From Candidatus Saccharimonadales bacterium (GTDB lineage: Bacteria; Patescibacteriota; Saccharimonadia; Saccharimonadales; JBBSJF01), in the NCBI GenBank assembly GCA_038257495.1, contig JBBSJF010000002.1:159-24158 (forward strand): 24,000 nt of DNA, given 5' to 3'. The notes below the pieces were generated by a model. The model worked only from the letters and a program-made list of their open reading frames with translations, made no database searches and was not told where the DNA came from. Position 1 is the stretch's first letter. Each line of letters begins with the position of its first letter. A program made the position numbers and the translations under genes. This document shows positions 6,185-22,590 of the stretch, in pieces.

Positions 6185-7798
6185 CTAGTCGGCTGGTTCT
6201 AAATCGACAGATGCTTTAGGCTCAATCTTATCATAAGGGTTATATATCTTAAATCGACTCTGATCTATACCCTGCTCTAATATCGCTTCTCGAACTTTTG
6301 TACTATTCTTTTTTAAAATTGTTATATCTGGGGAGCTTAGGTCGGTAGCAATATTATGCACAGGAGCTCCTACGACTGGTAATATGAATATATATTCGCC
6401 ATATATCGAAACCTCATCTATCTCCGGGTATTTTAGTAGGTTGGATATTCTTTTATCAACTGGATCACTTAGGTTGGTCTTTTGGTCGATATAGAGCGCT
6501 ACTTTTTTGTCTCTACCGTTAGTAAGACACAAGGTGTACCCCTCGGAGTTATTTGTTTGTATGCCACAGTAGCTGTAGTCGCCCAATGTATAGCTTGCAA
6601 AACCTTCGCCCTTATCTATATCCAGCTCAAGTATTTCGTTTTCTCTAGAAACAAGAGCGGTTTTATTATAGTTTTGAATCGACTCCACGTTACTTACGCT
6701 GTATAAAAGTTTTTGTTTTTTACCGCTAATGTCGTAAACATCAAGTTGTTTTCCTGCAAGCGTACATAGTTTATTACTACCGCAAGGTGTAACGAAGCTG
6801 AATAAAGTCTTGAAAGTGAAATGGTTAAGTACGCCGTTATTGCTTACAATAACTTCGGTCTGAGCACCCTTAAATGTTTTAGGGTTCTCTATCTCTGTAT
6901 CTTCTTTTAGGCCTTTTGTGTAAACCGCGGCAATTACTTCGCCATTAATGTTAAGTGAATTCGGAACAAACTCACTATCTTTCGGACGTTCTAAAGTTAT
7001 ACTCAAGGGTCTTGCACTAGCCGAAGGGTAATACAAAAGTTTTTCCAAAGAGCTATTATAGTAGTTTTCGTATACTAAAAACCCTTCCCTGTAAGGAAGC
7101 ATAGAATATGTCTTTTCTAAACCAAGGTCAGCTAAGCCTATCTCGCCGCCCAAAGACAGGTCTTCGTTTAGTGTATACAGGGTATGTAGGGTGTCCTCTG
7201 CTTGGACTGGCTGCAGTAAAATTAATGATCCCTCGGGTTTTTTTATGACTCCTTCAATAAGACGGTTTAGTGGAAAAGGATTCTTCTCGACATAGGTTGG
7301 TGTATCCGCTGTTGCTGGTTTATGTATCTGCAGTTCGCTATAAAAACCACCGCAATTATATGAAATGAACGTTTTAGCAGCAAGGTGCATGCATGAAGCA
7401 GGATTATTGCCCGTAAATGTTCGTTGTTTTTCGGATAGTACAGTAGCTTCTATCTTTTTGGTTCTTAAAAATCCACTAGACTTTGCCACTGCAAAAAAGC
7501 TTAATCCGTTTTGGTCTACGAAAACTTCGGAGGTTCCTCTGGACACAAGACGTTTTACTTTTATGGGTGCGTCATTTAATTCGACTATTTTCTTAGATTT
7601 TTGATCTGTAATTTTATACGTTACTTTATCTTTTCCTGGATTGGCTATCGTTACCTCGATAAAAGAATGGTTATATATCCAATAGCCGGCGATTATCAAA
7701 ATAATAATAAAAATTATTTGAATAAGCCTTTTTTTGTCGATAGAAGACACTACTGATCCAATTTTTGGCAATAACTCACTTGTTTGCAATGTAGCCAT
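6185..7798 (-). CDS. Hypothetical N-terminally membrane-anchored protein of unknown function, last gene of the T4SS-like operon
   Basis: 537-aa uninterrupted ORF. It has a single N-terminal TM 'LIQIIFIIILIIAGYWIY', then a long Y/N/K/T/S-rich sequence with alternating hydrophobic pattern (looks beta-rich). RBS-like 'ggggg' lies upstream of the ATG at 7798, only 36 nt downstream of the hydrolase gene. I recognise no family motif. Confidence 0.75.
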   Translation of the reverse strand: MATLQTSELLPKIGSVVSSIDKKRLIQIIFIIILIIAGYWIYNHSFIEVTIANPGKDKVTYKITDQKSKKIVELNDAPIKVKRLVSRGTSEVFVDQNGLSFFAVAKSSGFLRTKKIEATVLSEKQRTFTGNNPASCMHLAAKTFISYNCGGFYSELQIHKPATADTPTYVEKNPFPLNRLIEGVIKKPEGSLILLQPVQAEDTLHTLYTLNEDLSLGGEIGLADLGLEKTYSMLPYREGFLVYENYYNSSLEKLLYYPSASARPLSITLERPKDSEFVPNSLNINGEVIAAVYTKGLKEDTEIENPKTFKGAQTEVIVSNNGVLNHFTFKTLFSFVTPCGSNKLCTLAGKQLDVYDISGKKQKLLYSVSNVESIQNYNKTALVSRENEILELDIDKGEGFASYTLGDYSYCGIQTNNSEGYTLCLTNGRDKKVALYIDQKTNLSDPVDKRISNLLKYPEIDEVSIYGEYIFILPVVGAPVHNIATDLSSPDITILKKNSTKVREAILEQGIDQSRFKIYNPYDKIEPKASVDLEPAD

Positions 7799-7834
7799 AC
7801 TAAACCCCCATTCTCTTTAGTTGTATAGTTAGAT

Positions 7835-9793
7835 TCATGCTGGCAATCCGTTAAAGAGAGCGTTTATTAATGGAATAATACCAGGGTCACGACAATCCGT
7901 GCCTCCCCCTCTTTGAGGGACCCCTCCTTGTATACACCCGCGATCTAGATGAAGGTGAGGGTAGGTATTTCGTGCACACTGTGTCCTCCCGATCTGAGCG
8001 ATCTGTTGACCGCTCTTTACCTGGTCGCCAGTCTTGACCGTTAACTGACTGACATGAAGAAAAGCATAAATGAAGTTATCTTTACTAGATTTTAATTGAA
8101 TCGTAAAACAACCAGCATTACCGTCGTAGTTGTCGTTTGCGGAAACTATTTGACCATCAGAAATTGCAAATATTGGTGTTCCTACTGGGTTGGTGTGCAC
8201 AGAAATATCAAAAGCAGGTGAACAGCATCCTGCCGGACCTTTGTGGTGGCACCCACCCGTGTTGCCACAGGGTAAGCTCGACATAGCAGTTACCCTCTTA
8301 TGGGCAGCCTGGCTAGCTGGTGAAACCGGGAAGCTATAGCCTTCGGCGTTTACCACCCCACTACTTCCGGAATTATCGCAACCAGCTCCGCCGGTAGAGC
8401 CTGTCGTATCAGCTACGGGACCCGTGGTCGGAGGAGTACCTGTTCCAGAACCAAGTTTTGCCAGCCATGCCTCGGCAAATGCCATTCGCGGAGCAAAATC
8501 TTGACCAACTTCATATTTATCCTGCCATATTGAAACGGCCGATGCGAGGGTGGTCGCGCTTTTAAGAGGATCAAGTGCGCGTGATTTATAGTATGGGCTT
8601 TCTAGCTCGGTCCACATCCAATCAAGCTGAAGACCCAGGTCATAAACAGGCAAGTTCTTTGCTGCAGCTAGATCTATAAGTCCCTGTTTTCTGCCTGGGC
8701 TGGTCCACTGCACGATGCCGTATCCTGGTTGACCATCTTTTCCTACGGGAGGTGGGACGGTGTCGGACTCCCCACCCCAAGATCTACCCCCCCAGTTACC
8801 CTTTTCTACTATTTTTGGATTAAAATTACCTTCAGTTTGTAGATTTCCCATAGCCCCTGCCGCTTGGATTGCGGTAAGACCCTTGCCCGTTAAGTAATTC
8901 CATACTTTAGACGGGTTATCAGAGCCATTTAAGCCAACACCTGTCGTGCATTTACAGCCGTTACTTCCCGCTCCCGATTGTGTTTCTGTATCTGCTGGCT
9001 GCTGATCTATATTTGGCGGAGGGGCGTTGGGGTCTTGGCTAAGTTCGGCGCGTAACTTTTCCATATATTTTTTTCCTGGATCAAGATTTGTTGTAGTTGT
9101 TTCATAATGACCAAATACCCCTTTCCTGGCGCCTATATCTGACGCCGCTGGTATACTGTATTTTGCCATAAGCTCTCTAATCGTTCCTAAAACAGCTTGG
9201 TATTGAACGGCATTACTAAGCAGGTCTTGCTCGGCTGCCGCTACACTGTCGGTAGTTATGCTTTGTATCTCAATTCCGATAGACGCGTTGTTCCAACTTG
9301 GGTCGACAAAGGTCTGTATGGGCTTGGTCTCAAGCGATTCAGAGAGTTGGTGGACCTTCCCTTGCTTGTCTATGGTGAGCTGTACGGCTCTCCCATTGGG
9401 AAAGCCAGTCGCGACTCGACCTCTCAGTATATTTACCAAATCCTGAGGATTCTTATACTCGTAGGCTGTCCAATGCAGAATTACGCCAGTAGGAGTAATC
9501 TTGGGACCCTTAAAGGGATCTTTTACTCCCGGGTCAGGACCTGTTGGTAATAAAGGTCCGGTAGTTGCTGGCGTGGACTCAGGATTTGGCTTGGGTGGCG
9601 TTTCGTCTAGCGATCCACATCCCGAATCAGGATCATAATAAGGAAATTTTTTTATAATAGCCTCGCGCGTATTCTTCGCTGTAACTCCCATAGGGTACAT
9701 GCCCTGTAAGTACATAGAGACGACCAATATGGGCAGCTGAAAAATTAGTAGAATACGGCGTAGCCGCACTGGGTTTAATCGTTTGTACCGCAT
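7835..9793 (-). CDS. Secreted/anchored three-domain peptidoglycan hydrolase (Amidase_2-like + phage-tail-lysozyme-like + M23 peptidase)
   Basis: The track ORF is 7835-9826. I prefer ATG at 9793 (MRYKRLNPVRL...), which has 'gggag' upstream, whereas 9826 has no RBS. A hydrophobic signal/anchor 'ILLIFQLPILVVSMYL' follows. The amidase_2 pattern is 'GVILHWTA...ASIGIEIQS...GHYE...DPG'. The lysozyme-like pattern is 'AAGAMGNLQTEGNFNP...GYGIVQWTSPGRKQGL...LQLDWMWTEL'. The M23 pattern is 'AFDISV...GTPIFAISDGQIV...YAFLHVS...VKTGDQVKSGQQIAQIGRT...PHLHLD'. Confidence 0.9.
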   Translation of the reverse strand: MRYKRLNPVRLRRILLIFQLPILVVSMYLQGMYPMGVTAKNTREAIIKKFPYYDPDSGCGSLDETPPKPNPESTPATTGPLLPTGPDPGVKDPFKGPKITPTGVILHWTAYEYKNPQDLVNILRGRVATGFPNGRAVQLTIDKQGKVHQLSESLETKPIQTFVDPSWNNASIGIEIQSITTDSVAAAEQDLLSNAVQYQAVLGTIRELMAKYSIPAASDIGARKGVFGHYETTTTNLDPGKKYMEKLRAELSQDPNAPPPNIDQQPADTETQSGAGSNGCKCTTGVGLNGSDNPSKVWNYLTGKGLTAIQAAGAMGNLQTEGNFNPKIVEKGNWGGRSWGGESDTVPPPVGKDGQPGYGIVQWTSPGRKQGLIDLAAAKNLPVYDLGLQLDWMWTELESPYYKSRALDPLKSATTLASAVSIWQDKYEVGQDFAPRMAFAEAWLAKLGSGTGTPPTTGPVADTTGSTGGAGCDNSGSSGVVNAEGYSFPVSPASQAAHKRVTAMSSLPCGNTGGCHHKGPAGCCSPAFDISVHTNPVGTPIFAISDGQIVSANDNYDGNAGCFTIQLKSSKDNFIYAFLHVSQLTVKTGDQVKSGQQIAQIGRTQCARNTYPHLHLDRGCIQGGVPQRGGGTDCRDPGIIPLINALFNGLPA

Positions 9794-12700
9794 CGGTTTG
9801 CTCCCGGCAGCGGATCCCAGTGCCATGCTTCATAACTATATTGTTTGATCCCGTACTGCTCTGCATTCTTTAAAAGCCATTCCCATCGTGGGTTACCGGG
9901 GGCACGCATGCGACCTGGCCCACAACTCGTAGTTGAGTTACCCTTGCCTCCGGCATTTGCAAAATCTATAGCAGCCCCAAGCTGGTGGATAGACTGTCCG
10001 GGTCTAGCACAGGAGCTTCCATCTCCGTTACCTCCACAAGAATCGGCTAGTCTAAAGGAGCTAACCGAGGATAGACCAATCCCGTCTTTTTTAGCCTGTG
10101 CGGCAAGTGCCTGCCATGCACCCGATACATTAGAGCTAACGACTGCCCCGCCGGCTTTTTCGACACCGGCAGTATCATTACCTTCACCAGGAATATCCGT
10201 AACTCGACAAAGTTTTAAGACTATAGGTCCAGGCTGTTTTTTATAAGCCCCGGTGTACTTACTAGTAACCTCACCTATGTCAACCGTACCGGCGGCACAA
10301 GGCACGTTAGTGCTACTTTTACCCAGAGTGCTAGGATCGACTTTAGTGCCCACGCTTGGTGTCGTCCCAGCTCCCGAAGTATCACTACTGGCTTGTTCTA
10401 TGGCGGTAAAGTCTTTCTCTAGATCTTTTACTATGTATTCGTCTGGACCAGTATATATTCGATAGCGAAGCGCCGGCTCGGTACTTAGACCCGGACCAGA
10501 ACAATCAGGGTTTTCTCTTGCGATCTTGTCTGTATCGTTTACTTTCTCGCCCGCAAAACATTTTCCATATTTTTCTTCTAGTGGCGCCAGCCCTCCATGA
10601 CTCTCGATCCATAACTCGTTATTCTCTAGTGTGTAAGACTCATCGGTACGCATTTTCTCGATTTCATCAGGCGAATACCCTCGCTGAACCACATCGTAGT
10701 GGTTGATGGGCGAGGTGTTACCAGCTGCGTATACGGCGCCTGAAGTCATGCCTAGCGAAGCAACATTAGAGGCTAGACCTTGAGGGCTAAAGACATTAAC
10801 AGACTTGAATAAGGAATTCTTGAACACACTTCCTATTCCCGTAGAAGTCACTGGTATAGAAGCCGCGACTTGGCTAACGATAGAGTACGGATTACTAGTT
10901 GCGAAGTACCTTTCTTGGAACGGTAGAGCGTCTACTTGGCTCTTGAGATAACCCTTCTCGTATTTATAGACAGCTGCCGATTCCTGGGGAGTGAGCGGCT
11001 TGCCCTTTACGCCTTTTGTAAGATTTTCGGACTGTAATAGTTCTAGCCCAACATGGTTCTTGCCATATTTTTCTGGTCCAGACTCAGGACCCGCATAGTT
11101 AAGGCTACCGAATAAAGCTACGGAGAGCTGTAGGCCAACATCGATTAGTAGAAACCCCCCAAGTGTCGCAAGTCCTGCTTTTGAGAATATTCCTGTTGCG
11201 GCTCCCTGGAGTGTTTTGCCGAGTCCAGTAACGATGGCTCTACCCAAGGCCTGTTCCGCTGCATTACCCGTACCTCCCGATACGACTGCTATTGCAACCT
11301 GAAGTGCCACATCTACGGCGAGTAAGGTTACCTGTCCAGCGGGGCTTAAAATCCCTTCACAAACTTTAGCGTTCGTAGCATCCACCACAGGACCAACGCC
11401 GGGTATTTCGGTGGCTCCCGGTAGCACGAAATTAGTGGGACTGGTTAGTGCCTGGACTATACTAATAAGTGTAGGGTCTAATTTTGGCTTAGTAGCAGGA
11501 ATGTTGTACTCGGCTGGCATAACAATGTTTTCTTTGCCCACTGCACGCTGATAGTCAGGAGACCTGTCTGCCTGGTCCCACAGCCTTCCGTCGGCAATAG
11601 GAGCTGCACCTTTTACCTCTCCAGATCTAATCTGGTCGGCACCAGAAAGGGCGTCGTGTCCCATGCGTTTAGCAGCATCTTGGTTCTTTTCTTCCGATTC
11701 TTCTATTTTGCTCGCGGCATCATTGATCATGCACGCAAGGGTTACGATCTGGGAGCCAATAGAGACTGTATTAGCGGCTGCTTCAAGACCGCCTACTTTA
11801 TTGTTCTTTAACGCATTACGCACAGCTTTCTGTGGATCGTACTTGCCGCCATCTTCTGCGATCGCTTTCTTGGCTTCTTCGGGGATATCATCAAGGGTAT
11901 CATTAAGTCTGGGAGAGGAAGCATCTACGTGCTCCCTGCTCACATTATCTATGAGATCTTGCTTATTTTTAATATCCGCCTCTACTGGTGTTTTGCCTAC
12001 ATAATCCCTACCCTTTTGCCGCCACTTAGACATCTTAATGCCACTTTTTAGCCGGATATTATCAAAGACGGCGTTACGTGCTGCTTTGCCTTCTATTTGT
12101 AAGTTTTTTCCTACTCCTGTCTGCACTTTGTCTGTAAAGATTTTGCGGGCTGTCATCTTTTCCCTTAGCGTTAGGTCCTTAAAAGATTTTCCCTTAAACG
12201 TTTCTTTAGATACATCGTCTATGGCTATCAGTTCTCCGTCTATGCGTAGCCCCTTAAAGTCACCTCCTTTGCGGTTTAGGAAGCCACTTTTTTCCTCGAA
12301 TTCAAACCGTAGTTGGTCGTTGGCACCAAAGTCCCGTAGTTGTTTTTCAATATCTATGCCTCGAAGTCTGTCTCTTAATTTAGTCTTGGGTCTAGGAACG
12401 GTGCCTGGTCCATCTACCAGTGCTGCGTCAAAAAGGTTTTGAGCGGTTCGTTCCCGCAGAATAAAGTGGAACCTGGCAAAGCCAGATCGGAGTAATATCT
12501 CTCCAAAATGTACGGACTTAAAACCGCTCAAGAAAAACAGAAGGAACAGTCCGATAGCCAAGATAGATAATATGCCACCCGCTCCTCCACCGGCTAAAAG
12601 GAGTTTTTTTCTCTTGCTTCTTCCGGACGATGTGCCACTCGCTTTAGAGCGCTTGGGCAAGAAGCCACGAATCTTGGACTGTTCATTTGAGTCATCGGAT

Positions 12701-12930
12701 TCGTCAGGATTATATAGTGATTCGCCTTCCTCTGGGCTTTCGTCTTCGCCACTCTCGGCGTTGTTTAACTGGTCTGCACCTAGCCCATCTTTTTTTAGGG
12801 TTGCGCTTTTCTGGTCATCAATAGCCGAAAACTTATCGCCATACTTGGTATCTAGCTGGCGTTCCAAATCCCCCAGGTGCTGTAGCCGGTCTGTGTCTTT
12901 ATCTGGTTCAATCCCGTTATTTGTGGGCAC
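9775..12930 (-). CDS. Large bitopic/polytopic membrane protein with C-terminal VanY/peptidase M15 (D-Ala-D-Ala carboxypeptidase-like) domain
   Basis: 1051 aa, GTG start with aggag RBS inside the end of virB4. The first ~105 aa are acidic and low-complexity, followed by basic 'KRSKASGTSSGRSKRKK' and TM 'LLLAGGGAGGILSILAIGLFLLFFL' (aa ~109-137). There is a central Gly/Ala-rich hydrophobic block 'VTLLAVDVALQVAIAVVSGG...LATLGGFLLIDVGLQLSVALFG'. The C-terminus 'SSFR...ARPGQSIHQLGAAIDF...WEWLLKNAEQYGIKQYSYEAWHWD' matches the VanY/M15 metal-binding motifs (S.H..G.A.D ... E.WH). Confidence 0.85.
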   Translation of the reverse strand: MPTNNGIEPDKDTDRLQHLGDLERQLDTKYGDKFSAIDDQKSATLKKDGLGADQLNNAESGEDESPEEGESLYNPDESDDSNEQSKIRGFLPKRSKASGTSSGRSKRKKLLLAGGGAGGILSILAIGLFLLFFLSGFKSVHFGEILLRSGFARFHFILRERTAQNLFDAALVDGPGTVPRPKTKLRDRLRGIDIEKQLRDFGANDQLRFEFEEKSGFLNRKGGDFKGLRIDGELIAIDDVSKETFKGKSFKDLTLREKMTARKIFTDKVQTGVGKNLQIEGKAARNAVFDNIRLKSGIKMSKWRQKGRDYVGKTPVEADIKNKQDLIDNVSREHVDASSPRLNDTLDDIPEEAKKAIAEDGGKYDPQKAVRNALKNNKVGGLEAAANTVSIGSQIVTLACMINDAASKIEESEEKNQDAAKRMGHDALSGADQIRSGEVKGAAPIADGRLWDQADRSPDYQRAVGKENIVMPAEYNIPATKPKLDPTLISIVQALTSPTNFVLPGATEIPGVGPVVDATNAKVCEGILSPAGQVTLLAVDVALQVAIAVVSGGTGNAAEQALGRAIVTGLGKTLQGAATGIFSKAGLATLGGFLLIDVGLQLSVALFGSLNYAGPESGPEKYGKNHVGLELLQSENLTKGVKGKPLTPQESAAVYKYEKGYLKSQVDALPFQERYFATSNPYSIVSQVAASIPVTSTGIGSVFKNSLFKSVNVFSPQGLASNVASLGMTSGAVYAAGNTSPINHYDVVQRGYSPDEIEKMRTDESYTLENNELWIESHGGLAPLEEKYGKCFAGEKVNDTDKIARENPDCSGPGLSTEPALRYRIYTGPDEYIVKDLEKDFTAIEQASSDTSGAGTTPSVGTKVDPSTLGKSSTNVPCAAGTVDIGEVTSKYTGAYKKQPGPIVLKLCRVTDIPGEGNDTAGVEKAGGAVVSSNVSGAWQALAAQAKKDGIGLSSVSSFRLADSCGGNGDGSSCARPGQSIHQLGAAIDFANAGGKGNSTTSCGPGRMRAPGNPRWEWLLKNAEQYGIKQYSYEAWHWDPLPGANRCGTND

Positions 12931-14829: not shown

Positions 14830-14852
14830 GCGCGCCTCCTTTTGGAGACACA

Positions 14853-14936: not shown

Positions 14937-14952
14937 TTTTGTCTTAATGTGC

Positions 14953-15885
14953 TCATAGCAGCTCCCTGTCTAGGTGTGGGGTTGGGGCTTCGCCCTCACC
15001 CTTGGTAACAATCGGTACCGTTAAATCACTAAAGTTCCTAAGTTGTTGGCGCGTAGCAGTATCGGGGTTATAGGCATCGTAGTATAACTCGATAAGCTCT
15101 TGAGTATCTAGGGGCAAGCCCTGCACGCCGCACTGCATAAGACCGCTTAGGACAGACTGTATCCTGTTGCGTAGTTCGTCCTTTGCCTTAAGTAGGTCTC
15201 TCTCGTTGATGGTAACGTGCTGTTCTTTCTGGTTAAAAAGCGCCGTAAAGTTGCCAAAAAAGTTTTTACTAGCTTCTACTGCCGCTCCTGCCGAAACGGA
15301 CTCAGAATAATAAGGAATGATTAGATAGAACCGTTTATCCATAATATTAGTTTGGACCGCTAAGTCACTCACGAACGCTATATAGTCTTCCATTAACAGC
15401 GCCAAAAGCATGTTCTCGTGTTCGCCACGTATTTTATCTAGCTTCTCTATATAAGGGCCGAGGTCTACTTTTTGGGATCTTACCTGAATTTGTATAGGAA
15501 AATAGAGTGAGTTTAAGAAGCCTTGGTACCCACCTTCTACGGCCTCCCGCTCACCAGGGCTCATGAGGTCAAAGTTGATGCTTTTTGCCATTACGACTGC
15601 TCGGAATGAGCCGTCATTCATAATGACGATACCATCACGTACTTCGGCTATCTGTAACGTATTTTGTGTACTGTTTGGGTTAGATTTCGACTTAAGTGCC
15701 GGGTTGGGTGCCGGCGCGGTGCCGGGTTGTTGACCATATACTATCGGAGGAACGCTCTGCGGGTATTGCGGCGGCGGGGCTTGTTGCTGTGGTAGGGTCT
15801 GAGGATAAGCAGGCATAGACCCTTGTTGTTCTGGAGCCGCTTGGTATGGATTAGTTTGGTATGGCTGTTGTGTATTTGGTTCCAT
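14953..15885 (-). CDS. P/Q-rich protein with VirB4-N-terminal-domain-like core (no P-loop); T4SS-like accessory subunit
   Basis: 310 aa. The first ~75 aa are P/Q/Y-rich and low-complexity (PYQTNPYQAAPEQQ...QQQAPPPQYPQ). The core 'IAEVRDGIVIMNDGSFRAVVMAKSINFDLMSPGEREAVEGGYQGFLNSLYFPIQIQVRSQKVDLGPY' and later 'LSGLMQCGVQGLPLDTQELIELYYDAYNP' resemble my recollection of the N-terminal region of Gram-positive VirB4/Orf16-type ATPases. There is no Walker motif. The functional call is inference. Confidence 0.7.
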   Translation of the reverse strand: MEPNTQQPYQTNPYQAAPEQQGSMPAYPQTLPQQQAPPPQYPQSVPPIVYGQQPGTAPAPNPALKSKSNPNSTQNTLQIAEVRDGIVIMNDGSFRAVVMAKSINFDLMSPGEREAVEGGYQGFLNSLYFPIQIQVRSQKVDLGPYIEKLDKIRGEHENMLLALLMEDYIAFVSDLAVQTNIMDKRFYLIIPYYSESVSAGAAVEASKNFFGNFTALFNQKEQHVTINERDLLKAKDELRNRIQSVLSGLMQCGVQGLPLDTQELIELYYDAYNPDTATRQQLRNFSDLTVPIVTKGEGEAPTPHLDRELL

Positions 15886-15918
15886 CTATATAATTACTGT
15901 CCCACCTATGTTCTCTAA

Positions 15919-17025
15919 CTAGCGCAACGATATGATAACTTCACCGTCATCAGGTTTCTGACGATTGGCAAGTTTTGCTATCGTTTCCACCTTCAAATCA
16001 TTACTTTTGGCAAGTTCCAGTGTAGCAGGACTGGGGGGTTTTGTCATGGAAGCATTAGCGGTAACCTTGGCTCTTTCTGCGGCAGCGCGGCGTTCATCTT
16101 CTGCAAGCTCACTGGGTGTTTTAAGTCGCTTCATATGGCTATGGTAGGCGACGTCGTCATTCTTGCGCTGGTCGGTGTGTATTTGTTGCAAAAGCGCCTC
16201 CTCTTCTGCCGTAGGGGTGGTGGGCGCTACGGGAGCGCTAGAAGACTGGGGTGCAACTGAAACGCTTTGGAATGTTACCGCCCCATCAGAACCGTTGGCG
16301 GTCGCTGTATTCCTAGATGTAGGCAGTATGGTGCTTCCTACTCCTATGTTTGAGCTTTCGGGTGAGGAATTTTGGATCTGGTTAACGATGCGTTGCCGGT
16401 TTTCCTGAGTTTGCTGCCGAATCATCTGATCCATCTGCTTGGCTAGGGGGTTATTGTCGGCGTCCATTATGTCGTCCTCCGGAGCCACTAAAATAGTAGG
16501 CACGGTTTGCGGCAACGTACTTGCCTCTACCAACCTATCTGATTCTTGGGCGTTACTCCCCATGGCATAACCCGATTGGTGGGAGTACATATTGACGCTA
16601 ATATTCTTTACGGCCCACCCTCTGCTATCTAGAGTACTAGAAAGGGCATTAAGACGGCTGCGCACCTGCTGTTGGTCTAGACCGTCGGTATATATGCGCT
16701 CGATCTTTTTGGGCGCGGTTATGTGTACAAAGTCTATTACGCCGCTCTGGTTCCAGAGTCTTTTTCGGGGCTTTATAGCAAACCGTATCTTAGCCTGCAA
16801 CCATATTTCTGTGGGCTGATCTCGACCAAGCGGGGCGGCTAATATGCCGAGAACTAAAATAGGAGGAATTATAGGTATGACCAGAATTGGGCTAACCAAG
16901 AATAAGCGAAAAGCAAAAAAGATAAGAATAACGTCGATAATAACAAATATAAACTGCTTGAGCGTCAAGGGTCCAAGTATTTTGTCCTCTGCCTCGATAT
17001 CTTGAATTACTTTATATGTCGCCAT
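15919..17025 (-). CDS. PrgI-family (VirB3-like) membrane protein with long C-terminal extension
   Basis: The N-terminus 'YKVIQDIEAEDKILGPLTLKQFIFVIIDVILIFFAF' followed by a second TM 'ILVIPIIPPILVLGILAAPLG' matches the PrgI/VirB3-like pattern (...DI..EDKI.G.LT.RQ + two TMs). It lies immediately upstream of the VirB4-region genes. The residues after about aa 110 form an S/A/P/Q-rich, probably disordered extension. Confidence 0.7.
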   Translation of the reverse strand: MATYKVIQDIEAEDKILGPLTLKQFIFVIIDVILIFFAFRLFLVSPILVIPIIPPILVLGILAAPLGRDQPTEIWLQAKIRFAIKPRKRLWNQSGVIDFVHITAPKKIERIYTDGLDQQQVRSRLNALSSTLDSRGWAVKNISVNMYSHQSGYAMGSNAQESDRLVEASTLPQTVPTILVAPEDDIMDADNNPLAKQMDQMIRQQTQENRQRIVNQIQNSSPESSNIGVGSTILPTSRNTATANGSDGAVTFQSVSVAPQSSSAPVAPTTPTAEEEALLQQIHTDQRKNDDVAYHSHMKRLKTPSELAEDERRAAAERAKVTANASMTKPPSPATLELAKSNDLKVETIAKLANRQKPDDGEVIISLR

Positions 17026-17027
17026 AT

Positions 17028-19847
17028 TTATAGTCCGTCATATGTTGATTTATGTGCTGGGTCTGCGAACCTGTCTTTTTCTGTCTTGCCGCTAGGATCT
17101 ATGTATGCGTTACCGGATAATATCGCCAAGTTCTCGGCACCCATAGAGGCTTTTATCTTTTCACTGTCCTTAATGCCCTTCATCTGTGCCTCCATGCGGC
17201 TTACGGTTGCAACCGCAACTGGATCCGCTGGTTTTGCTTTCGCATCCGCAAATTGCTCACGCCACATAGAAAATGTTGAAGTATCCCAAGACGCCATTGA
17301 TTCGGAGCTTGCGGTTGTAAGCGATCCCGCCCCTTTTACCATATCGGGGGCCTTCTCGTTAAATGACCCAAAATTGGACTGTTTTGCACCTTGCCATAAA
17401 GTTTGACCGGCTTTATCGGCTTTACCCTCAGTACTATTCTCAAAGTATTCTTGAACTGCCCTAGCTTCGGGTATAAGACCTTTTTTACCTATCTGATCCA
17501 TCGCCCATTGCTTAGATGCCCTGTCGCCTCCCAGGGTTTTTCCATTGAACTCGACTTTCTTTCCTGTTGCAAGTGCCTGTAGGTGCTTACTAAGATCGGC
17601 ACTTCCCTCTAACTGGCTGGCGATTAATTCTTGCTGGAACGCGTCTTGCTGTACTTTCTCGCCTTGTGCTGCCTGTGCAGCTTGCCCACGACTCCATCCA
17701 GCCCGTGTTCCCTTGAGGCCTACGGGACTTTGACCAGAACCGAGCGCATTTGCGTTAAGACTTCTTCTTGCCATAAAGCCTCGGATGTTCTTCTTATCAC
17801 GATTCAGATAATTTCCATATGCGGCATTTTCCTTTCGTGCCTTGCGGGTATTGGTACGGAAGTTTTTGGTGCGGTCGAACATGCCCTTGCTACGGTTGTT
17901 TGCCATGCCGGTGAGCGTCCCTACTAGGCCACCCGCTAAGGTAAGGGCTTTTGGAAGGGCAAAATAGGGTCCAAAGTAAGCTATAAACATTACAATCTGC
18001 TGGAACGCGTCTATCTGTCCGTCTGGCGCCGAATTTTTTATGATTGTTGCTATGACCCGCCCAGACATAATAAACGCCATCATAATCGGGAACATCAGGA
18101 GTGCTTTGCTAAATGTTTCCCACCAAAACTTCCATATTTTTTGAGTATTTGGCAACGCGTTCGAGGCAAAAGCGAGTGGAGCAAACACTACCAGCACAAT
18201 CAGGGCCATTTCACGAAAAACTAGAATAGCCAGAGCAGTACCAACGGCAAGAAGCGCCGTAACGCCAAAGCTGAGTAGCCCAATGATTCCAAATGCAGCC
18301 GCAAACCCTACCACGCCGATCGTGATTATGCCATTTACTACACTATTCCCTCCTGAATCCAGAGGAGGTAAATCTCGGATCGGTATATACATTAGCGCGC
18401 GCACACCGAGCCCGATGTCGTTAGAAATATTAATGGCCAACTTACATAGGTCCCACGATATAGTCATAAGCAAAGCCGCTACTAACAGCTTGGGCAGCAC
18501 TTTCTTAATAGTATAAGCCTCGAAGATACCAATATTAAGAGCCTGGGAGATAACCATGGCGAGTATGCCTATAATAATAAATGCCAGAGACATTTTGCGC
18601 ACCACGTCCCATGCTTGATAGAGTCCCGCGCCCGTTGGGCTATTTTCGTTAAATGGGCTGTTGTTGCCATCTGTATCTATGTGTAGCTTTTGGGTAATAG
18701 CATTGTCTAAAAGCCGGACCGCAGCGTTGGCGGCGTCAATAATAGGGCAAGCTATCCAAGTGAGCGGGTTCTTTAGGCTAAAGTCACAGCCAATCTCGGG
18801 TTCTCTGCTTCCTCCTTCCCCGATAGGGGTTCCGTCTGGGTTTACGGGGTTTCCAGCAGGATTATCAGATCCGGCAATACGAACCTTAACCCGGCTATTA
18901 CCGCCCTTTTTATGTATAAAAACATCTTTTGTCCCCGCCCCTACGCCCTCAAAGTCTTTTTCGCCCACCTTTGAGTTATCCTCATTCAGTAGCTCAAGGT
19001 TACCAGAGCAGTTCGCTCCATTATCCCAGTTGCTACCGCACCACGTAAAACTGCGGGTGTTCTGCTCGTCTCTAGATACGTGCTGTATCTTACCGTTTTT
19101 AAAACCGTATGTAACATTAAAGTTCTCCAAATCTGCGTCCGAGAAAAGCTTAGCTATCAATAAGCCCGTTTCCAGTGAAACGTCTGCCCGAGTACCTGAT
19201 CCAATACAGTTCCATTCGTATGAATTACCTTTTAGGGTATAAACAAAATTACCGTTTTGGACTCCAGTACAGTCGAACCCACCGACTACGTCTTCCTCTA
19301 CGGAAATAACATATTCTGCACCATTATCTGCTCCAGCTTCAAGGCATTGTCTAATACTTGGTATATCAAGTATCTGGTCTCTTCCTCCGGTGGCATCGTC
19401 TTTATTGACTCCACATCCACCGTCTTTTGTATCAAAATTATCAATCCTGCTGTCGTCTAATGCCCTTTTGCCCTTCTCATTCCTATAGTCAAAGTCTCCG
19501 TCTGAAGTATTGATGTCGGTCATTGTAAGTGTAATGAGCGGCGCAATATCGACAGTTCCGATAAGCTTGTCTCCTGGGCATCCGCCGGGTTTGTATGTTA
19601 CTTCTATAGATGCCCTATTCTTGAAACGAATAGACATCCAGCCACCGGGGGCTCGCTTTTTGTTTCTTGGACTGTATTCTGATGTAGGAAGATCACAGAA
19701 CTCGGGAATCGTCACCCCTGTGGCGTATTCTTTACTTGCCGCCTTTGCCTGACCAGAAAATAGTACGGGTACTACAATAACAGCAACAAGAAAAGCTGCT
19801 CCAAATAATGCCCCGCCCCGCTTAAGTTTATCGATCATTGTAACCAT
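17028..19847 (-). CDS. VirB6/TrbL-like polytopic channel protein with large Cys-rich N-terminal ectodomain and long C-terminal tail
   Basis: 939 aa with RBS aggtga. Signal peptide 'GALFGAAFLVAVIVVPVLFSGQAKAAS', then a ~370-aa Cys-containing domain. About 7-8 TM helices follow (aa ~415-640, e.g. 'LAFIIIGILAMVI', 'IITIGVVGFAAAFGIIGLLSFGVTALLAVGTALAILVF', 'LIVLVVFAPLAFAS', 'LLMFPIMMAFIMSG'), then a ~300-aa hydrophilic tail. It is the first gene of the operon, 2 nt from the next gene. The family call rests on topology and context, not on a diagnostic motif. Confidence 0.65.
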   Translation of the reverse strand: MVTMIDKLKRGGALFGAAFLVAVIVVPVLFSGQAKAASKEYATGVTIPEFCDLPTSEYSPRNKKRAPGGWMSIRFKNRASIEVTYKPGGCPGDKLIGTVDIAPLITLTMTDINTSDGDFDYRNEKGKRALDDSRIDNFDTKDGGCGVNKDDATGGRDQILDIPSIRQCLEAGADNGAEYVISVEEDVVGGFDCTGVQNGNFVYTLKGNSYEWNCIGSGTRADVSLETGLLIAKLFSDADLENFNVTYGFKNGKIQHVSRDEQNTRSFTWCGSNWDNGANCSGNLELLNEDNSKVGEKDFEGVGAGTKDVFIHKKGGNSRVKVRIAGSDNPAGNPVNPDGTPIGEGGSREPEIGCDFSLKNPLTWIACPIIDAANAAVRLLDNAITQKLHIDTDGNNSPFNENSPTGAGLYQAWDVVRKMSLAFIIIGILAMVISQALNIGIFEAYTIKKVLPKLLVAALLMTISWDLCKLAINISNDIGLGVRALMYIPIRDLPPLDSGGNSVVNGIITIGVVGFAAAFGIIGLLSFGVTALLAVGTALAILVFREMALIVLVVFAPLAFASNALPNTQKIWKFWWETFSKALLMFPIMMAFIMSGRVIATIIKNSAPDGQIDAFQQIVMFIAYFGPYFALPKALTLAGGLVGTLTGMANNRSKGMFDRTKNFRTNTRKARKENAAYGNYLNRDKKNIRGFMARRSLNANALGSGQSPVGLKGTRAGWSRGQAAQAAQGEKVQQDAFQQELIASQLEGSADLSKHLQALATGKKVEFNGKTLGGDRASKQWAMDQIGKKGLIPEARAVQEYFENSTEGKADKAGQTLWQGAKQSNFGSFNEKAPDMVKGAGSLTTASSESMASWDTSTFSMWREQFADAKAKPADPVAVATVSRMEAQMKGIKDSEKIKASMGAENLAILSGNAYIDPSGKTEKDRFADPAHKSTYDGL

Positions 19848-19935
19848 AATATCACCTAATGCACTATCTTATGAATACCAAAAAAGACAAATCAGGCTCA
19901 TTGTGGTACAGTTATTTTAAAGAGAGTACAAATAA
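19848..19935. promoter_or_regulatory. Divergent control region shared by the two arms of the T4SS-like locus
   Basis: This 88-nt AT-rich gap lies between the first minus-strand gene (start 19847) and the first pilin-like gene (start 19936). A weak minus-strand candidate promoter is TTGTCT-N16-GATAGT. I cannot see a convincing plus-strand -35/-10 pair. Confidence 0.4.
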
Positions 19936-20667
19936 ATGCTTAAAATTAATAGTTTAAAAAACATTTTCACCTTAGTCCTTCTCGGCTCTATCTTCATGAT
20001 TATGGGCAGCGTGTCTGTCGTTCGGGCCGAACAAAAAGAGGTGGGATTCTCGTGTCCTACCGGCAGGGCTACATTAGAAAAGACAGACATCGTCCGCTAT
20101 AGATGTCCCCCAAGTAATCCTCCCCCAGGGTTCCTAGTAGGTACGCCACGAGCCATTAGGGGCAGCGAGGTTCTTGTAATAAAAGTCGACTGTGGTCCAC
20201 TAAATGTGAGTGTTGGTGTCGGTGATGTCTTTTGCGATAACGACAATGACCTTTCCAATGGATCCAGTAAGCCCGATCCGAATAAGGTAACCGAGGTTCG
20301 ACGGATCCCGGCAGATGCTAACGCTGCTCCTATTTCCCCCACAGCCACACCAGACGTAGGTGGAGGAGGTGGCGATATTAACCGAGCTGTAGACCCAGCC
20401 ATTACTTGCGAGGTAGAGAAGCAAGGGAGCGACTGTGATCTTATTAAGAAGTACCTAAACCCTATTATTAAATTTCTCTCATTTGCAGTTGGTATCGTGG
20501 TTACTGGTGTAATTATTTTAGGAGGTATTCAATACTCGGCATCGGGCGGTGATCCTGGGGGCGTGGCTGCGGCAAAAAAACGAATTATAAACGCTTTTCT
20601 AGCACTCGCCTTTTATATGTTCTCGCTGGCTATACTTAATTGGTTAATACCAGGAGGCCTTGTGTAA
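19936..20667 (+). CDS. T4SS pilin-like (VirB2/TrbC-type) protein with extended Cys-rich N-terminal ectodomain
   Basis: 243 aa. Signal peptide 'IFTLVLLGSIFMIMGSVSVVRAEQ'. A ~140-aa domain with 6 Cys and a P/G-rich linker follows. The C-terminal two-helix pilin hairpin is 'FLSFAVGIVVTGVIILGGIQYSASGGDPGGVAAAKKRIINAFLALAFYMFSLAIL'. Confidence 0.75.
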   Translation: MLKINSLKNIFTLVLLGSIFMIMGSVSVVRAEQKEVGFSCPTGRATLEKTDIVRYRCPPSNPPPGFLVGTPRAIRGSEVLVIKVDCGPLNVSVGVGDVFCDNDNDLSNGSSKPDPNKVTEVRRIPADANAAPISPTATPDVGGGGGDINRAVDPAITCEVEKQGSDCDLIKKYLNPIIKFLSFAVGIVVTGVIILGGIQYSASGGDPGGVAAAKKRIINAFLALAFYMFSLAILNWLIPGGLV

Positions 20668-21041
20668 TGGGGATTTTTAAACTTATTGCCGGAGCATCTT
20701 GCCAGTTATCAGGTGGGAGTTTCTTTGGATTGCCTACATGGTACAAATATCTGGCGGATAAAGGAGAGGTAGACCCCTTGGGACGTTGTCGTTATGTACC
20801 TAAAGTCGAGAATATGGGTGATGGTTTATTAGTTCTACTGGGGTTAGTAGATATTTTACTCCGGGTCGGTGGTATGGTGGCGTTTGGTTTTATAGTTTGG
20901 GGCGGTTTACAGATGGTGCTTAGCCAGGGCGAACCCGATAAGCGAGCTAAGGCTGTAACTACGCTTATTAACGCCGCTATAGGACTGGTTATAACCCTTT
21001 CTGCGGCAGGTATATTGTCTTTTGTGGCAGGTAAGTTTTAA
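20667..21041 (+). CDS. T4SS pilin-like (VirB2/TrbC-type) protein, paralogue 2
   Basis: I place the start at ATG 20667, which overlaps the upstream TAA (taATG) and has aggagg 10 nt upstream. The track's 20640 start lies inside the previous gene. The hairpin is 'GLLVLLGLVDILLRVGGMVAFGFIVWGGLQMVLSQGEPDKRAKAVTTLINAAIGLVITLSAAGIL'. No classical signal peptide. Confidence 0.75.
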   Translation: MGIFKLIAGASCQLSGGSFFGLPTWYKYLADKGEVDPLGRCRYVPKVENMGDGLLVLLGLVDILLRVGGMVAFGFIVWGGLQMVLSQGEPDKRAKAVTTLINAAIGLVITLSAAGILSFVAGKF

Positions 21042-21044
21042 AAT

Positions 21045-21320
21045 ATGAATATGTACCTAGCCCAATTAGACATATCCCCCTTGCCCAACATACAGCCCAA
21101 TGAAGCTACGGCACTTATCATTACTAATACTGTTTTCGGTATTATTGGGGCAATCTGTATGATCGTCATCCTTTTACTCGCTTTTAAGTTCATCACCTCC
21201 AGGGGCAATCCAGAGGCTACCGGTAATCTAAGAAATGGCATTATTTTTGCTGGTATAGGTCTTGCTATATGCATAGCTGCTAGCTCAATTGTTTCTTTCA
21301 TTATAGGTCGTGCCAGATGA
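21045..21320 (+). CDS. T4SS pilin-like (VirB2/TrbC-type) protein, paralogue 3 (shortest, Cys-less N-terminus)
   Basis: 91 aa. The hairpin is 'ALIITNTVFGIIGAICMIVILLLAFKFITSRGNPEATGNLRNGIIFAGIGLAICIAASSIV'. It starts 3 nt after the previous stop. Confidence 0.7.
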   Translation: MNMYLAQLDISPLPNIQPNEATALIITNTVFGIIGAICMIVILLLAFKFITSRGNPEATGNLRNGIIFAGIGLAICIAASSIVSFIIGRAR

Positions 21321-21700
21321 AGTATTTCGCAGTTTTTCTTTTCACTCTCTTTACCTTTCTGTTTGTGTCTAGCGGAACCGGACATGCCGTGAACCTATTT
21401 CTCGCATGCGATGACCCGGCAGTCTCTGATTCCTCCGTTTGTAAGGATCAAAGTCGTCCGATCGCCATTAGCGGAAACGACAGTCTACTTTCAAGGGTGG
21501 TTGGTGTTTTAGCGTTGATTATTGGATTTAGTGGGGTTTTGCTCATGATTTGGGGCGGTATGAACTATATTATGGCGAATGGTGATTCACAAAGAGTAGC
21601 AAAAGCAAAAGATACTATATTGTTTGCTTCCATTGGTCTGATTATTGCGATTTTTGCACGGGTTATCATCGGGTTTGCTTTAGCGAGGATCGGAACATGA
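21317..21700 (+). CDS. T4SS pilin-like (VirB2/TrbC-type) protein, paralogue 4
   Basis: 127 aa. ATGA start/stop overlap with paralogue 3. Signal peptide 'MKYFAVFLFTLFTFLFVSSGTGHA', Cys loop 'CDDPAVSDSSVC', and hairpin 'VVGVLALIIGFSGVLLMIWGGMNYIMANGDSQRVAKAKDTILFASIGLIIAIFARVII'. Confidence 0.8.
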   Translation: MKYFAVFLFTLFTFLFVSSGTGHAVNLFLACDDPAVSDSSVCKDQSRPIAISGNDSLLSRVVGVLALIIGFSGVLLMIWGGMNYIMANGDSQRVAKAKDTILFASIGLIIAIFARVIIGFALARIGT

Positions 21701-22071
21701 AATACCTATTCATCTCATTATTAGCTGTAGCCTGCTTTTTAGGAATAAGTAGTCCTGTAGTCTCTTATGCTCAAGCAGAGCAAGAAGTTTGCGGCGGTGT
21801 CCAAATAGTCTCAGGAGAACCATGTGATGCGCCAGGAGGCGAAAGCAGAGTAAAATCTATAATGCAGCTTGGCTTAGATATATTTGCGATTGTTATGGGG
21901 ATTATCGCTGTTTTTATGATTATTATTGCCGGGCTAACAATAGCAACCTCTGCAGGAGACTCCTCGAAAATCAGTAAAGCACGCGACTCCATCATATATG
22001 CTTCGATAGGTTTGGCAGTAATAGTTTTCGCCAGGATATTAGTACAGTTCGTAATCAGTAGATCGGCTTAA
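21697..22071 (+). CDS. T4SS pilin-like (VirB2/TrbC-type) protein, paralogue 5
   Basis: 124 aa. ATGA overlap with paralogue 4. Signal peptide 'MKYLFISLLAVACFLGISSPVVSYAQA', Cys loop 'CGGVQIVSGEPC', and hairpin 'LDIFAIVMGIIAVFMIIIAGLTIATSAGDSSKISKARDSIIYASIGLAVIVFARILV'. Confidence 0.8.
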   Translation: MKYLFISLLAVACFLGISSPVVSYAQAEQEVCGGVQIVSGEPCDAPGGESRVKSIMQLGLDIFAIVMGIIAVFMIIIAGLTIATSAGDSSKISKARDSIIYASIGLAVIVFARILVQFVISRSA

Positions 22072-22135
22072 TCTATGCTTTTTATTAAGTCTCTCTGTGT
22101 ACCGTCATTTTGGCTCCAAGAAGCGGTCTAAAGTG

Positions 22136-22164
22136 TTGATTTTGTACCTAGGTTACTATATGAT
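22136..22164 (+). promoter_or_regulatory. Candidate sigma70-type promoter for the sixth pilin-like gene
   Basis: TTGATT (22136-22141)-N17-TATGAT (22159-22164), located in the 120-nt gap before the gene at 22192. RBS aaagga lies before the ATG. Confidence 0.35.
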
Positions 22165-22191
22165 CAGAGTATATTATACGAAAGGAAAACA

Positions 22192-22590
22192 ATGTTAAAA
22201 AGAATGTTAATAAGTATAGCTGCTAGCGTGAGTCTCTTGGTGCCTATGGCCATGCCCGTGGCAGTACATGCTCAACTTGGAGAAGAAATTAAAAAAGGTG
22301 CTTGTCTAAACACTACCGATGCCAACTGTGCAGGTACAGAAGATCCAGAAGGAAAAGTTAATGACTTACTCAAACAAGCGATCACTCTTTTCTCTATAGT
22401 GGTCGGGGTAATTTCTGTCGTCATGATCATCGTGGGTGGTCTTAAGTACATCACTTCCGGTGGAGAATCTGGCAATGTTACGGGTGCTAAAAATACCATT
22501 CTGTATGCGGTGATAGGTCTGATCATTGTGGCTATGGCACAATTTATTGTACAATTTGTTCTAAAGAAGGCTACCGATATTTCTACATAA
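22192..22590 (+). CDS. T4SS pilin-like (VirB2/TrbC-type) protein, paralogue 6
   Basis: 132 aa. Signal peptide 'MLISIAASVSLLVPMAMPVAVHAQ', Cys loop 'CLNTTDANC', and hairpin 'ITLFSIVVGVISVVMIIVGGLKYITSGGESGNVTGAKNTILYAVIGLIIVAMAQFIV'. Confidence 0.8.
   Translation: MLKRMLISIAASVSLLVPMAMPVAVHAQLGEEIKKGACLNTTDANCAGTEDPEGKVNDLLKQAITLFSIVVGVISVVMIIVGGLKYITSGGESGNVTGAKNTILYAVIGLIIVAMAQFIVQFVLKKATDIST

Follow-up and report, generated by a model that had tools for sequence, protein, structure and literature searches.

The cluster of genes examined here belongs to a kind of type IV secretion system (T4SS) set out by Wang et al. 2023 in Cell, who reported "an apparent T4SS (SEML1_0006-0019)" in Southlakia epibionticum (PMC10633639). 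Our subject is the corresponding locus of a Candidatus Saccharimonadales bacterium, at positions 6185-22590 of a stretch of 24,000 nt from contig JBBSJF010000002.1, which we call the window. In S. epibionticum, the cluster was found to be closest to Gram-positive conjugative T4SSs, to contain a series of essential pilins, and to be without recognisable coupling or relaxase proteins (PMC10633639). Transposon sequencing (Tn-seq) classed all of its genes as essential or growth-defective except the non-essential SEML1_0012; for most, a growth defect at the first time point gave way to essentiality later on (PMC10633639). The published gene table begins with dnaN and recF (SEML1_0002-0003) and continues with a lysozyme-type hydrolase (0006), a 1,114-aa protein with a DD-peptidase domain (0007), VirB4 (0008), a 294-aa protein listed as unknown (0009), PrgI (0010), and two VirB6-like proteins (0011 and 0013). 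Six pilins follow on the opposite strand (0014-0019), and then Hsp20 (0020) and ComFC (0021) (PMC10633639).

A later survey of 3,035 Patescibacteria genomes by Quinonero-Coronel et al. 2025 placed such systems in a monophyletic VirB4 clade nested in MPF-FATA (PMC12102498). Near virB4, these authors found TrsD, PrgI, VirB6, and VirB2-like pilins, the last in arrays of 2-11 genes, especially in Saccharimonadia, as well as hydrolases other than VirB1 (PMC12102498). The virB4 loci lay close to dnaA, dnaN, and rnpA, for which a gene-dosage hypothesis was offered (PMC12102498). A 2025 FEMS review (PMC12857230) and a 2024 PNAS perspective (PMC11665869) cover the same system and speculate about effector delivery or uptake; the perspective calls the role of the Patescibacteria T4SS "completely unknown" (PMC11665869). 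A 2026 preprint describes tubular structures, possibly T4SS pili, at a Minisyncoccota-host interface, together with feeding on host RNA. This T4SS is conserved throughout Saccharibacteria and was the first to be shown essential for the growth of its owner, and it may be a route by which metabolically dependent epibionts exploit their hosts.

The locus in our window is an orthologue of the SEML1_0006-0019 cluster. Both occupy the same place, with dnaA-dnaN-recF on one side and hsp20-comFC on the other, and both run in the same order from a hydrolase through a DD-peptidase protein of ~1,100 aa, VirB4, a ~300-aa protein, PrgI, and a VirB6-like protein to six divergent pilins. Relaxase and coupling protein are absent from the S. 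epibionticum cluster, as they are from the window. The differences lie in the details. The window has one VirB6-like gene (939 aa), whereas S. epibionticum has two (999 and 1,089 aa), and it holds no counterpart of the non-essential TAT/NTF2-like gene SEML1_0012. Its hydrolase combines Amidase_2, lysozyme, and M23 domains, compared to two lysozyme domains and a cysteine protease in S. epibionticum. The slot closest to recF is taken by a single 537-aa beta-propeller instead of two small PEGA/Ig-like proteins, and a 123-nt hairpin spacer precedes virB4 where the S. epibionticum genes overlap.

An earlier note, drawn up from the sequence of the window alone, had described a T4SS-like machine of this type. 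Its observation and its inference were both right, and both were already published. Its statement that the architecture of these gene sets was unresolved did not hold, as that architecture had been described (PMC10633639, PMC12102498). Earlier papers had already reported that such loci lack a relaxase and a type IV coupling protein (T4CP), lie near the origin, and carry a pilin array and hydrolases, and they had raised the hypothesis of a host interface. What we add is a TrsD-like reading of the 310-aa protein (g310), the 537-aa beta-propeller, positional orthology of the pilins, a promoter for pilin 6, and domain swapping in the hydrolase slot.

Core components and the pilus-assembly reading

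The window covers 24,000 nt of a 24,334-bp contig, and the absences reported below hold for the locus rather than for the whole genome. Our open reading frame (ORF) map placed seven minus-strand and six plus-strand genes in 6185-22590, diverging from an 88-nt spacer, which confirmed the two divergent arms and the shared spacer that had been claimed. In profile searches, which the earlier note had proposed as a check, VirB4, PrgI, the six pilins, and the hydrolase domains all scored above their Pfam gathering scores or NCBIfam curated cut-offs.

The motor is a VirB4 ATPase of the CD1110/MPF-FATA type, 631 aa long when read from Met33 (12934-14829, minus strand, in an ORF spanning 12934-14925). 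It matched NCBIfam NF045971, the CD1110 conjugal ATPase, at 351 bits against a cut-off of 325, covering profile positions 174-733 of 752, and it matched Pfam P-loop_TraG and AAA_10 at 93 and 48 bits. The motifs by which it had first been recognised as a VirB4 (AKSGAGKSF, IIDPENEY, and LLIIDEAW) are present in the translation, and the identification stands. Homologues align from residues 1-8 of the 631-aa form, which is where the Met33 start places the N-terminus. The same protein scored 258 bits against NF045975 (Mbov_0397, the VirB4 of a mycoplasma integrative and conjugative element, or ICE), below the cut-off of 590.

The neighbouring protein g310 (310 aa, 14953-15885, minus strand) had been set aside as an unknown. 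It can now be described as a homologue of TrsD and of the VirB4 N-terminal domain, with a Pro/Gln-rich disordered N-terminus followed by a VirB4 N-terminal-domain fold. Its profile matches were sub-threshold, both to positions 2-119 of the NCBIfam CD1110 VirB4 profile (E 1.6e-4) and to NF041427 TrsD (20.7 bits vs. a cut-off of 200, E 3e-4), and a g310 profile found no match among PDB sequences. However, in an AlphaFold2 (AF2) model made with 60 homologues, residues 78-272 form a core with a predicted local distance difference test (pLDDT) score of ~80, and the top 10 Foldseek matches of this model in the PDB were all TrwK/VirB4 of R388. Nine of the 10 had a probability of 0.90-1.00 and one of 0.85, and the best was 7o42_A (E 4.4e-3, probability 1.00). 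As g310 covers profile positions 2-119 and the 631-aa VirB4 covers those from 174 onward, the two proteins complement each other. Because the fold matches were also all to TrwK/VirB4, we identify g310 as a detached, TrsD-like N-terminal domain of VirB4, which is split here as in pGO1-type systems. The TrsD call in other Patescibacteria T4SS loci agrees with this reading (PMC12102498).

Next in the minus-strand arm is a PrgI/VirB3-like membrane protein of 368 aa (15919-17025) with a long hydrophilic C-terminal extension. Its assignment was borne out by Pfam PF12666, which matched residues 5-90 at 42.8 bits against a cut-off of 27; the hydrophobic stretch covers residues 16-68. The last gene of the arm (17028-19847, minus strand) encodes an extended polytopic protein of 939 aa, which its hydropathy topology marks as VirB6-like. 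Hydropathy predicts a signal or transmembrane (TM) segment, a Cys-rich extracellular domain of ~370 aa, about five TM segments (414-603), and a hydrophilic C-terminal domain of ~330 aa. The protein had no Pfam or NCBIfam match of its own. TrbL matches below threshold came from 3 of 40 orthologues, the best at E 0.0025, and from one homologue, P0131, at E 0.0086, and the S. epibionticum orthologues SEML1_0011 and SEML1_0013 match VirB6/TrbL by structure (PMC10633639).

Further searches with this protein were less informative. Against PDB sequences, it gave only chance-level matches to sugar-binding proteins, and a VirB6 TM-core search for a third large protein returned 2 proteins only. A profile of the VirB6 orthologues matched ~160 influenza haemagglutinin HA2 chains in the PDB (22 bits and E 4.7e-4 at best) through its positions 524-691, a stretch that corresponds approximately to the TM core. 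These matches begin at the fusion peptide, and we rejected them as probably compositional, reflecting a Gly-rich hydrophobic segment followed by helices rather than homology. Separately, a Peptidase_S74 domain was found in 3 of the 40 orthologues (best E 3.4e-8). This domain acts as an intramolecular chaperone in phage tail fibres and endosialidases, and its presence here hints that the ectodomains are fibre-like. SdrD_B, fn3_3, or CarboxypepD_reg domains turned up in single orthologues.

The plus-strand arm consists of six pilin genes. All six had been called VirB2/TrbC-type pilins, and all six exceeded the PF18895 gathering score of 26.6, spanning 33.8-48.6 bits. Pilin 1 (243 aa, 19936-20667, 34.9 bits) has a signal peptide and a VirB2-like hairpin, and in addition a Cys-rich domain of ~140 aa. 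Pilin 2 (20640-21041, 48.6 bits) probably starts at the ATG at 20667, which overlaps the stop codon of pilin 1. Pilin 3 (91 aa, 21045-21320, 39.6 bits) is the shortest and consists of the hairpin only. Pilin 4 (21317-21700, 33.8 bits) and pilin 5 (21697-22071, 38.2 bits) fall with pilin 6 in one subfamily. Pilin 6 (132 aa, 22192-22590, 47.4 bits) is the most conserved of the pilins, with a median identity of 48%, and it also came just below the cut-off for TrbC (27.5 vs. 27.9 bits). Pilins 1 and 6 weakly match NF045849 (Mbov_0395, a pilin-like protein of a mycoplasma ICE) at 21 and 28 bits, below the cut-off of 40. Some members of the MPF-FATA class may thus have hairpin pilins of their own, not taken over from diderm systems.

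Two large proteins had been proposed as cell-wall hydrolases in the VirB1 role, and their domains support this. The first (7835-9826, minus strand) is a TM-anchored peptidoglycan hydrolase with three domains above their cut-offs, Amidase_2 (39 bits), Phage_lysozyme2 (105 bits), and Peptidase_M23 (56 bits), and a hydrophobic segment at residues 22-44. The second is a membrane protein of 1,051 aa (9775-12930, minus strand). It has a disordered N-terminus, a TM segment at ~109-142, and further hydrophobic segments in its central part, and its C-terminal domain is a D-Ala-D-Ala carboxypeptidase of the VanY type (Pfam, 34 bits vs. a cut-off of 25). It matched no PDB sequence. Its S. epibionticum orthologue, SEML1_0007, is annotated as Hedgehog/DD-peptidase (PMC10633639). 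In 43 of the 45 loci listed, the gene after virB4 encodes a protein of 808-1,710 aa.

Family scans of the 22 principal ORFs of the window, with short nested ORFs left unscanned, found no relaxase, T4CP, VirB11, or integrase. Pilus assembly needs VirB2, VirB3, VirB4, VirB6, and wall hydrolases, while T4CP and relaxase are needed for the recruitment of DNA or effectors. The T4CP is dispensable for T-pilus biogenesis, and in R388, VirB6 is the platform on which the pilus is assembled. Because the VirB2, VirB3, VirB4, and VirB6 components and the hydrolases are present here and the coupling protein and relaxase are absent, we think it highly probable that this is a T4SS that assembles a pilus and does not conjugate, a judgment from which the substrate is excluded. 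In such a machine, VirB4 would extract pilins from the membrane, and these would be polymerised on VirB6 into a pilus or tube directed towards the host. The hydrolases would open a path through the epibiont's own wall and probably through the host's wall too. Pilin 6 would serve as the major subunit, with pilins 1-5 as minor or tip subunits.

Several points weigh against this reading. The Tn-seq essentiality comes from S. epibionticum, which is another organism (PMC10633639). VirD4-like T4CP homologues are present in most Patescibacteria genomes, usually far from virB4 (PMC12102498). The claim that the machine is coupling-protein-less is therefore correct for the locus but not for genomes at large. 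The VirD4-like gene of S. epibionticum is non-essential (PMC12102498). Within the window, neither Pfam nor NCBIfam recognised a VirB8-like protein, and the two AF2 models (of the 310-aa and 537-aa proteins) are not NTF2 folds. A VirB5-like tip protein was not recognised either. The 939-aa protein is weakly identified as VirB6-like in this genome, through its topology and sub-threshold matches, and the pilus of a Saccharibacteria T4SS is itself an inferred structure. VirB8 is a usual part of the Gram-positive channel.

Conservation in relatives and the question of a mobile element

VirB4 was found in more than 586 relatives among species-representative genomes. In the best 80 of these, it was 80-86% identical, and nearly all were named Saccharibacteria or Saccharimonadales, which agrees with the suggestion that the organism is an epibiont of the candidate phyla radiation. 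To compare gene order, we searched every window protein by tblastn against related loci, of which 25 are listed out of 45 with full flanks. The order comFC-hsp20-pilins-VirB6-like-PrgI-g310-VirB4, then a ~1,000-aa protein, a hydrolase, and a small surface protein, then recF-dnaN-dnaA, was found in 25 of the 25 listed loci (of 45 full-length). This synteny comparison beside recF had been suggested at the outset, and it placed the locus between recF and hsp20/comFC in every related locus that was mapped. Together with the VirB4 identity across the 80 species representatives, it upholds the claim that the system is chromosomally fixed.

Within these loci, VirB4 had a median identity of 83%, a value somewhat favoured in comparison with the other proteins because the loci were picked by VirB4 similarity. 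It was followed by Hsp20 (77%), DnaA (69%), g310 (65%, the second most conserved protein of the locus), DnaN (64%), and RecF (46%). Identities were lower for the pilins (35-48%), the hydrolase (34%), the VirB6-like protein (31%), the 537-aa protein (31%, detected in 9 loci only), and the 1,051-aa protein (28%). VirB4 (12934-14829) is thus more conserved than DnaA (2374-3765), DnaN, and RecF, an unusually strong constraint for a secretion ATPase. A cytoplasmic motor under strong constraint, combined with exposed parts that evolve fast, fits a host-facing interface, and the strong purifying selection seen for VirB4 and g310 agrees with the essentiality found in S. epibionticum.

These comparisons also bear on whether the locus could be an ordinary ICE, or the remnant of one, with its relaxase, coupling protein, and integrase outside the 24-kb window. 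VirB4 does belong to a conjugation ATPase family (CD1110), the contig ends only 334 bp past the window, and T4CP homologues occur elsewhere in most Patescibacteria genomes. However, the locus always lies between recF and hsp20/comFC in the related loci mapped, and across the same genomes conservation is higher for VirB4 than for DnaA (83% vs. 69%). No direct repeats bracket the locus in the window, where the search yielded nothing but short, scattered matches, none of them an att site, and no integrase is present. Moreover, only 109 relaxases were found in the 3,035 Patescibacteria genomes surveyed, 15 of them near virB4 (PMC12102498). The family scans and the repeat search confirm the stated absence of relaxase, VirB11, integrase, and att repeats from the window, and the view that this is not an ICE holds with them. 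Because of the conserved synteny and VirB4 conservation, we rejected the ICE explanation, to which we attach only a trace of credence. By its gene order and conservation, the locus is a vertically inherited chromosomal system of Saccharimonadia.

The flanking genes match those described earlier, with Pfam confirming dnaA-dnaN-recF on one side and hsp20/comFC on the other. In full, yidC, rnpA, dnaA, dnaN, and recF lie on one side, and hsp20 and a comFC-like phosphoribosyltransferase gene lie on the other. Three DnaA-box matches are grouped at 2189-2315, upstream of dnaA, and a fourth at 3782-3790 falls inside the dnaA-dnaN spacer (3766-4027). It is reasonable to call the locus origin-proximal because of these matches near dnaA and in the spacer. 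The spacer is 262 nt long and AT-rich (GC 0.366), and it may be the second half of a bipartite oriC. An 86-aa ORF at 3758-4018 had no family match and no tblastn match in 80 related loci and is probably no real gene.

The window also differs from its relatives in some respects. In many relatives, one or two accessory ORFs of 200-470 aa lie between the pilin array, the VirB6-like gene, and PrgI (L015:7132-7950 and L036:6957-7829 are examples), and some relatives have a second VirB6-like gene; the window has no such accessory ORFs. A Pfam scan of 29 of these ORFs (200-470 aa) found no convincing domain, with one weak CCB1 match (E 0.007).

The gap of 123 nt that had been noticed in the minus-strand arm is real, lying between g310 and virB4 when virB4 begins at Met33 (14830-14952, minus strand). 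The transcript of this spacer is predicted to form a long hairpin of ~25 bp and a small hairpin that pairs the GGAGG ribosome-binding site of virB4. The predicted fold has an energy of -52.5 kcal/mol (z = -4.65), a value that 0 of 200 shuffles equalled. The corresponding gap is no longer than 34 nt in 63 of 77 related loci, and a search for a second copy of the spacer sequence found none. Possible explanations are the insertion of a palindromic element or a control on the translation or stability of virB4. Searches of the window with Rfam and PADLOC gave no matches and no hint of a defence system.

The pilin kit, the hydrolase module, and possible roles

Exactly six genes of the PF18895 type were present in 40 of 56 arrays. 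We measured positional orthology as the share of other genomes whose best match sits at the same array position, and for positions 1-6, this share was 98%, 100%, 75%, 51%, 48%, and 92%. The cross-matches of pilins 4-6 fall mostly among themselves. By this measure, the six pilins are mostly ancient positional orthologues, and the array is not a cassette that is quickly reshuffled but a fixed set of long standing, with at least four distinct classes. Because the classes are fixed and all six pilins are essential in S. epibionticum, we favour a heteromeric structure over antigenic or host-range variation.

The last pilin is set apart from the others. From pilin 1 to pilin 5, neighbouring genes lie close together or overlap (median gaps of -4 to 8.5 nt), while pilin 6 is preceded in the window by a spacer of 120 nt (22072-22191, plus strand) that seems to hold a separate promoter and a strong ribosome-binding site. 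A spacer of at least 40 nt occurs at this position in 37 of 40 loci (median 71 nt). Among these 37 spacers, TATAA is present in 36, TGnTATAA in 28, and a GAAAGG ribosome-binding site in 34; the shared promoter pattern reads TTGA ... TGnTATAA. The putative promoter in the window reads TTGATT-17-TATGAT at 22136-22164, with GAAAGGA ahead of the ATG. Because it has its own conserved promoter and ribosome-binding site, pilin 6 is likely the major subunit, and we infer that it is separately and strongly expressed. This provides an experimental handle, as there is now a pilin to tag as the candidate major subunit, alongside the parts expected to face the host.

The divergent control region at 19848-19935 (88 nt, GC 29.5%) has putative promoters for both arms. 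The minus-arm promoter is predicted as TTCATA-18-TATTAT with a TG upstream (19875-19846), and an extended -10 element of the form TGnTAnnnT points towards the VirB6 arm in 31 of the 44 related divergent spacers. In the window, the minus-arm promoter overlaps the annotated first ATG of the 939-aa ORF, so that translation probably begins at Met4 (19838) and the leader would be very short or missing. We considered a leaderless start as a general rule for the VirB6 arm and dropped it, as distances from the -10 to the start vary widely.

The hydrolase slot has a different character. Across 57 orthologous positions, a Phage_lysozyme2 core is present in 37, and its partner catalytic domains are swapped. 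These partners are M23 (13 species), GDSL esterase (8 and 3 species by two Pfam models), SLT (6 and 3 species, also by two models), Amidase_3 (7 species), C39-like (6), CHAP (6), Amidase_2 (3), Glucosaminidase (2), GH3 (1), and NlpC/P60 (1). SLT and CHAP domains are absent from the window, while orthologous slots elsewhere carry SLT (9) and CHAP (6). In its shuffling, the slot resembles modular phage endolysins. This shuffling and the fast evolution of the VirB6 ectodomain suggest that both parts are matched to a variable target, which we suspect to be the host wall. The module tracks species, and possibly host wall chemistry.

At the recF-proximal end lies a lineage-specific surface protein of 537 aa (6185-7798, minus strand), whose N-terminal TM helix (17-42) is followed by an Ig-like beta-sandwich, a beta-propeller, and a small domain at the C-terminus. 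Its AF2 model (pLDDT 83.9, predicted template modelling score 0.81) indicates a membrane-anchored beta-propeller, and Foldseek searches of the PDB and BFVD returned generic WD40/propeller matches only. It had no Pfam or NCBIfam match, and only 10 homologues were found among 5.8 billion proteins. The GC content of the gene is 0.379, compared to 0.47-0.49 in its T4SS neighbours. Because of this low GC and the small number of homologues, we suggest that it is a recently replaced lineage-specific cassette. In S. epibionticum, the same slot holds PEGA/Ig-like exported proteins (PMC10633639).

Provided that the pilus-assembly reading is correct, what the tube would do can be divided among uptake, effector delivery, adhesion or signalling, and something else, and we weighed these four so that together they account for every outcome. 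The first is an import machine for host DNA, RNA, nucleotides, or other building blocks, as in ComB and Ced, which by analogy is a tentative but serious possibility. The presence of VirB2, VirB3, VirB4, and VirB6 without T4CP or relaxase parallels ComB. Uptake through the T4SS has also been put forward as a candidate route on the grounds that in S. epibionticum ComEC is dispensable, the T4SS is essential, and nucleotide synthesis is lacking. The 2026 preprint also reports host-RNA feeding and possible T4SS pili in a related lineage, and comFC is a conserved neighbour of the locus. However, the match of VirB4 to the CedB family is far below the cut-off (52 vs. 700 bits), as is that to CedD (25 vs. 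600 bits). Equivalents of CedA or ComB7-10 are absent from the window, and uptake via a T4SS pilus is not directly known from any monoderm. Moreover, comFC is non-essential in S. epibionticum (PMC10633639).

Alternatively, the hydrolases could be part of the cargo. An effector-translocating T4SS would export proteins into or onto the host without a coupling protein, like Bordetella Ptl or Brucella VirB, and its cargo could include the wall hydrolases encoded in the locus or effectors encoded elsewhere. T4SSs that secrete proteins without a T4CP exist (PMC12857230, PMC12102498), and Wang et al. leaned towards the export of proteins or "an alternative capacity" (PMC10633639). The two hydrolases carry four catalytic domains, and their slot is shuffled between species like endolysin modules. 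Still, we identified no effector candidates or secretion signals in the window, and both hydrolases have N-terminal TM or signal segments, so that they could exit by Sec. In a monoderm, a protein exported by Sec is already outside, and the two-step logic of Ptl does not transfer directly. We consider effector delivery rather unlikely.

A third possibility, that the tube only tethers the epibiont or probes the host and carries no cargo, draws on the exposed parts of the locus. Conjugative pili act chiefly in attachment, and pilin 1 has an extra Cys-rich domain. The 537-aa beta-propeller and the large VirB6 ectodomain resemble binding modules, and the Peptidase_S74 found in 3 of 40 VirB6-like orthologues is of tail-fibre type. 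Against this, Saccharibacteria already attach via type IV pili and several adhesins, and four wall-degrading activities exceed the needs of an adhesin, making a purely adhesive or sensory organelle the kind of explanation we would seldom expect to be right. That the tube does something other than uptake, effector delivery, or adhesion and signalling is conceivable and must be allowed a modest share.

Taking the pilus-assembly reading further, we can picture a fixed heteromeric pilin kit, with pilin 6 as the major subunit and pilin 1 as a Cys-rich head, which together with species-specific hydrolases would build a hollow tube into the host envelope for the import of host nucleic acids or other building blocks. 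This picture is speculative, and we would expect it to fail rather than hold in full. If true, however, it would represent a T4SS that works inward without a T4CP, bears a pilus in a monoderm, and is essential for life.

Comparison with known systems

With respect to the Patescibacteria VirB4 clade (PMC12102498), nothing essential differs, and the window adds one more member. That the pilins are orthologous by position, that pilin 6 has a promoter of its own, and that domains are shuffled in the hydrolase slot are points apparently not made there.

Two groups of systems outside this clade share part of its gene content. In mycoplasma ICEs, the pilin and VirB4 proteins (Mbov_0395 and Mbov_0397) are weakly similar to those of the window, below cut-offs; these elements are mobile and have a single such pilin gene. 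Helicobacter pylori ComB and archaeal Ced are VirB4-based systems without relaxase or T4CP and provide a precedent for inward transport. Like the window, ComB has VirB2-like and VirB3-like subunits. However, it also has a diderm core (ComB7-10), and Ced uses CedA, CedA1, and CedA2, none of which were found in the window. Moreover, ComB and Ced import DNA, whereas the Patescibacteria system is known here from its genes alone.

The Gram-positive T4SSs, including pGO1/pSK41 Trs, pCF10 Prg, and Clostridioides difficile CTn2 (CD1110), share with the window a CD1110-type VirB4, a PrgI/VirB3 protein, and a polytopic VirB6/PrgH-like protein. As in the window, pGO1 has a separate TrsD-like protein, and PrgK and TrsG are large TM-anchored wall hydrolases like those described here. 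By contrast, the window has no relaxase, T4CP, oriT, recognised VirB8-like protein (PrgL/TcpC), or PrgB-type adhesin. It does have six VirB2-type pilins, whereas Gram-positive conjugative T4SSs are said to have none. Finally, the Gram-positive conjugative T4SSs are mobile, while the Saccharimonadia system is inherited vertically on the chromosome and is essential.

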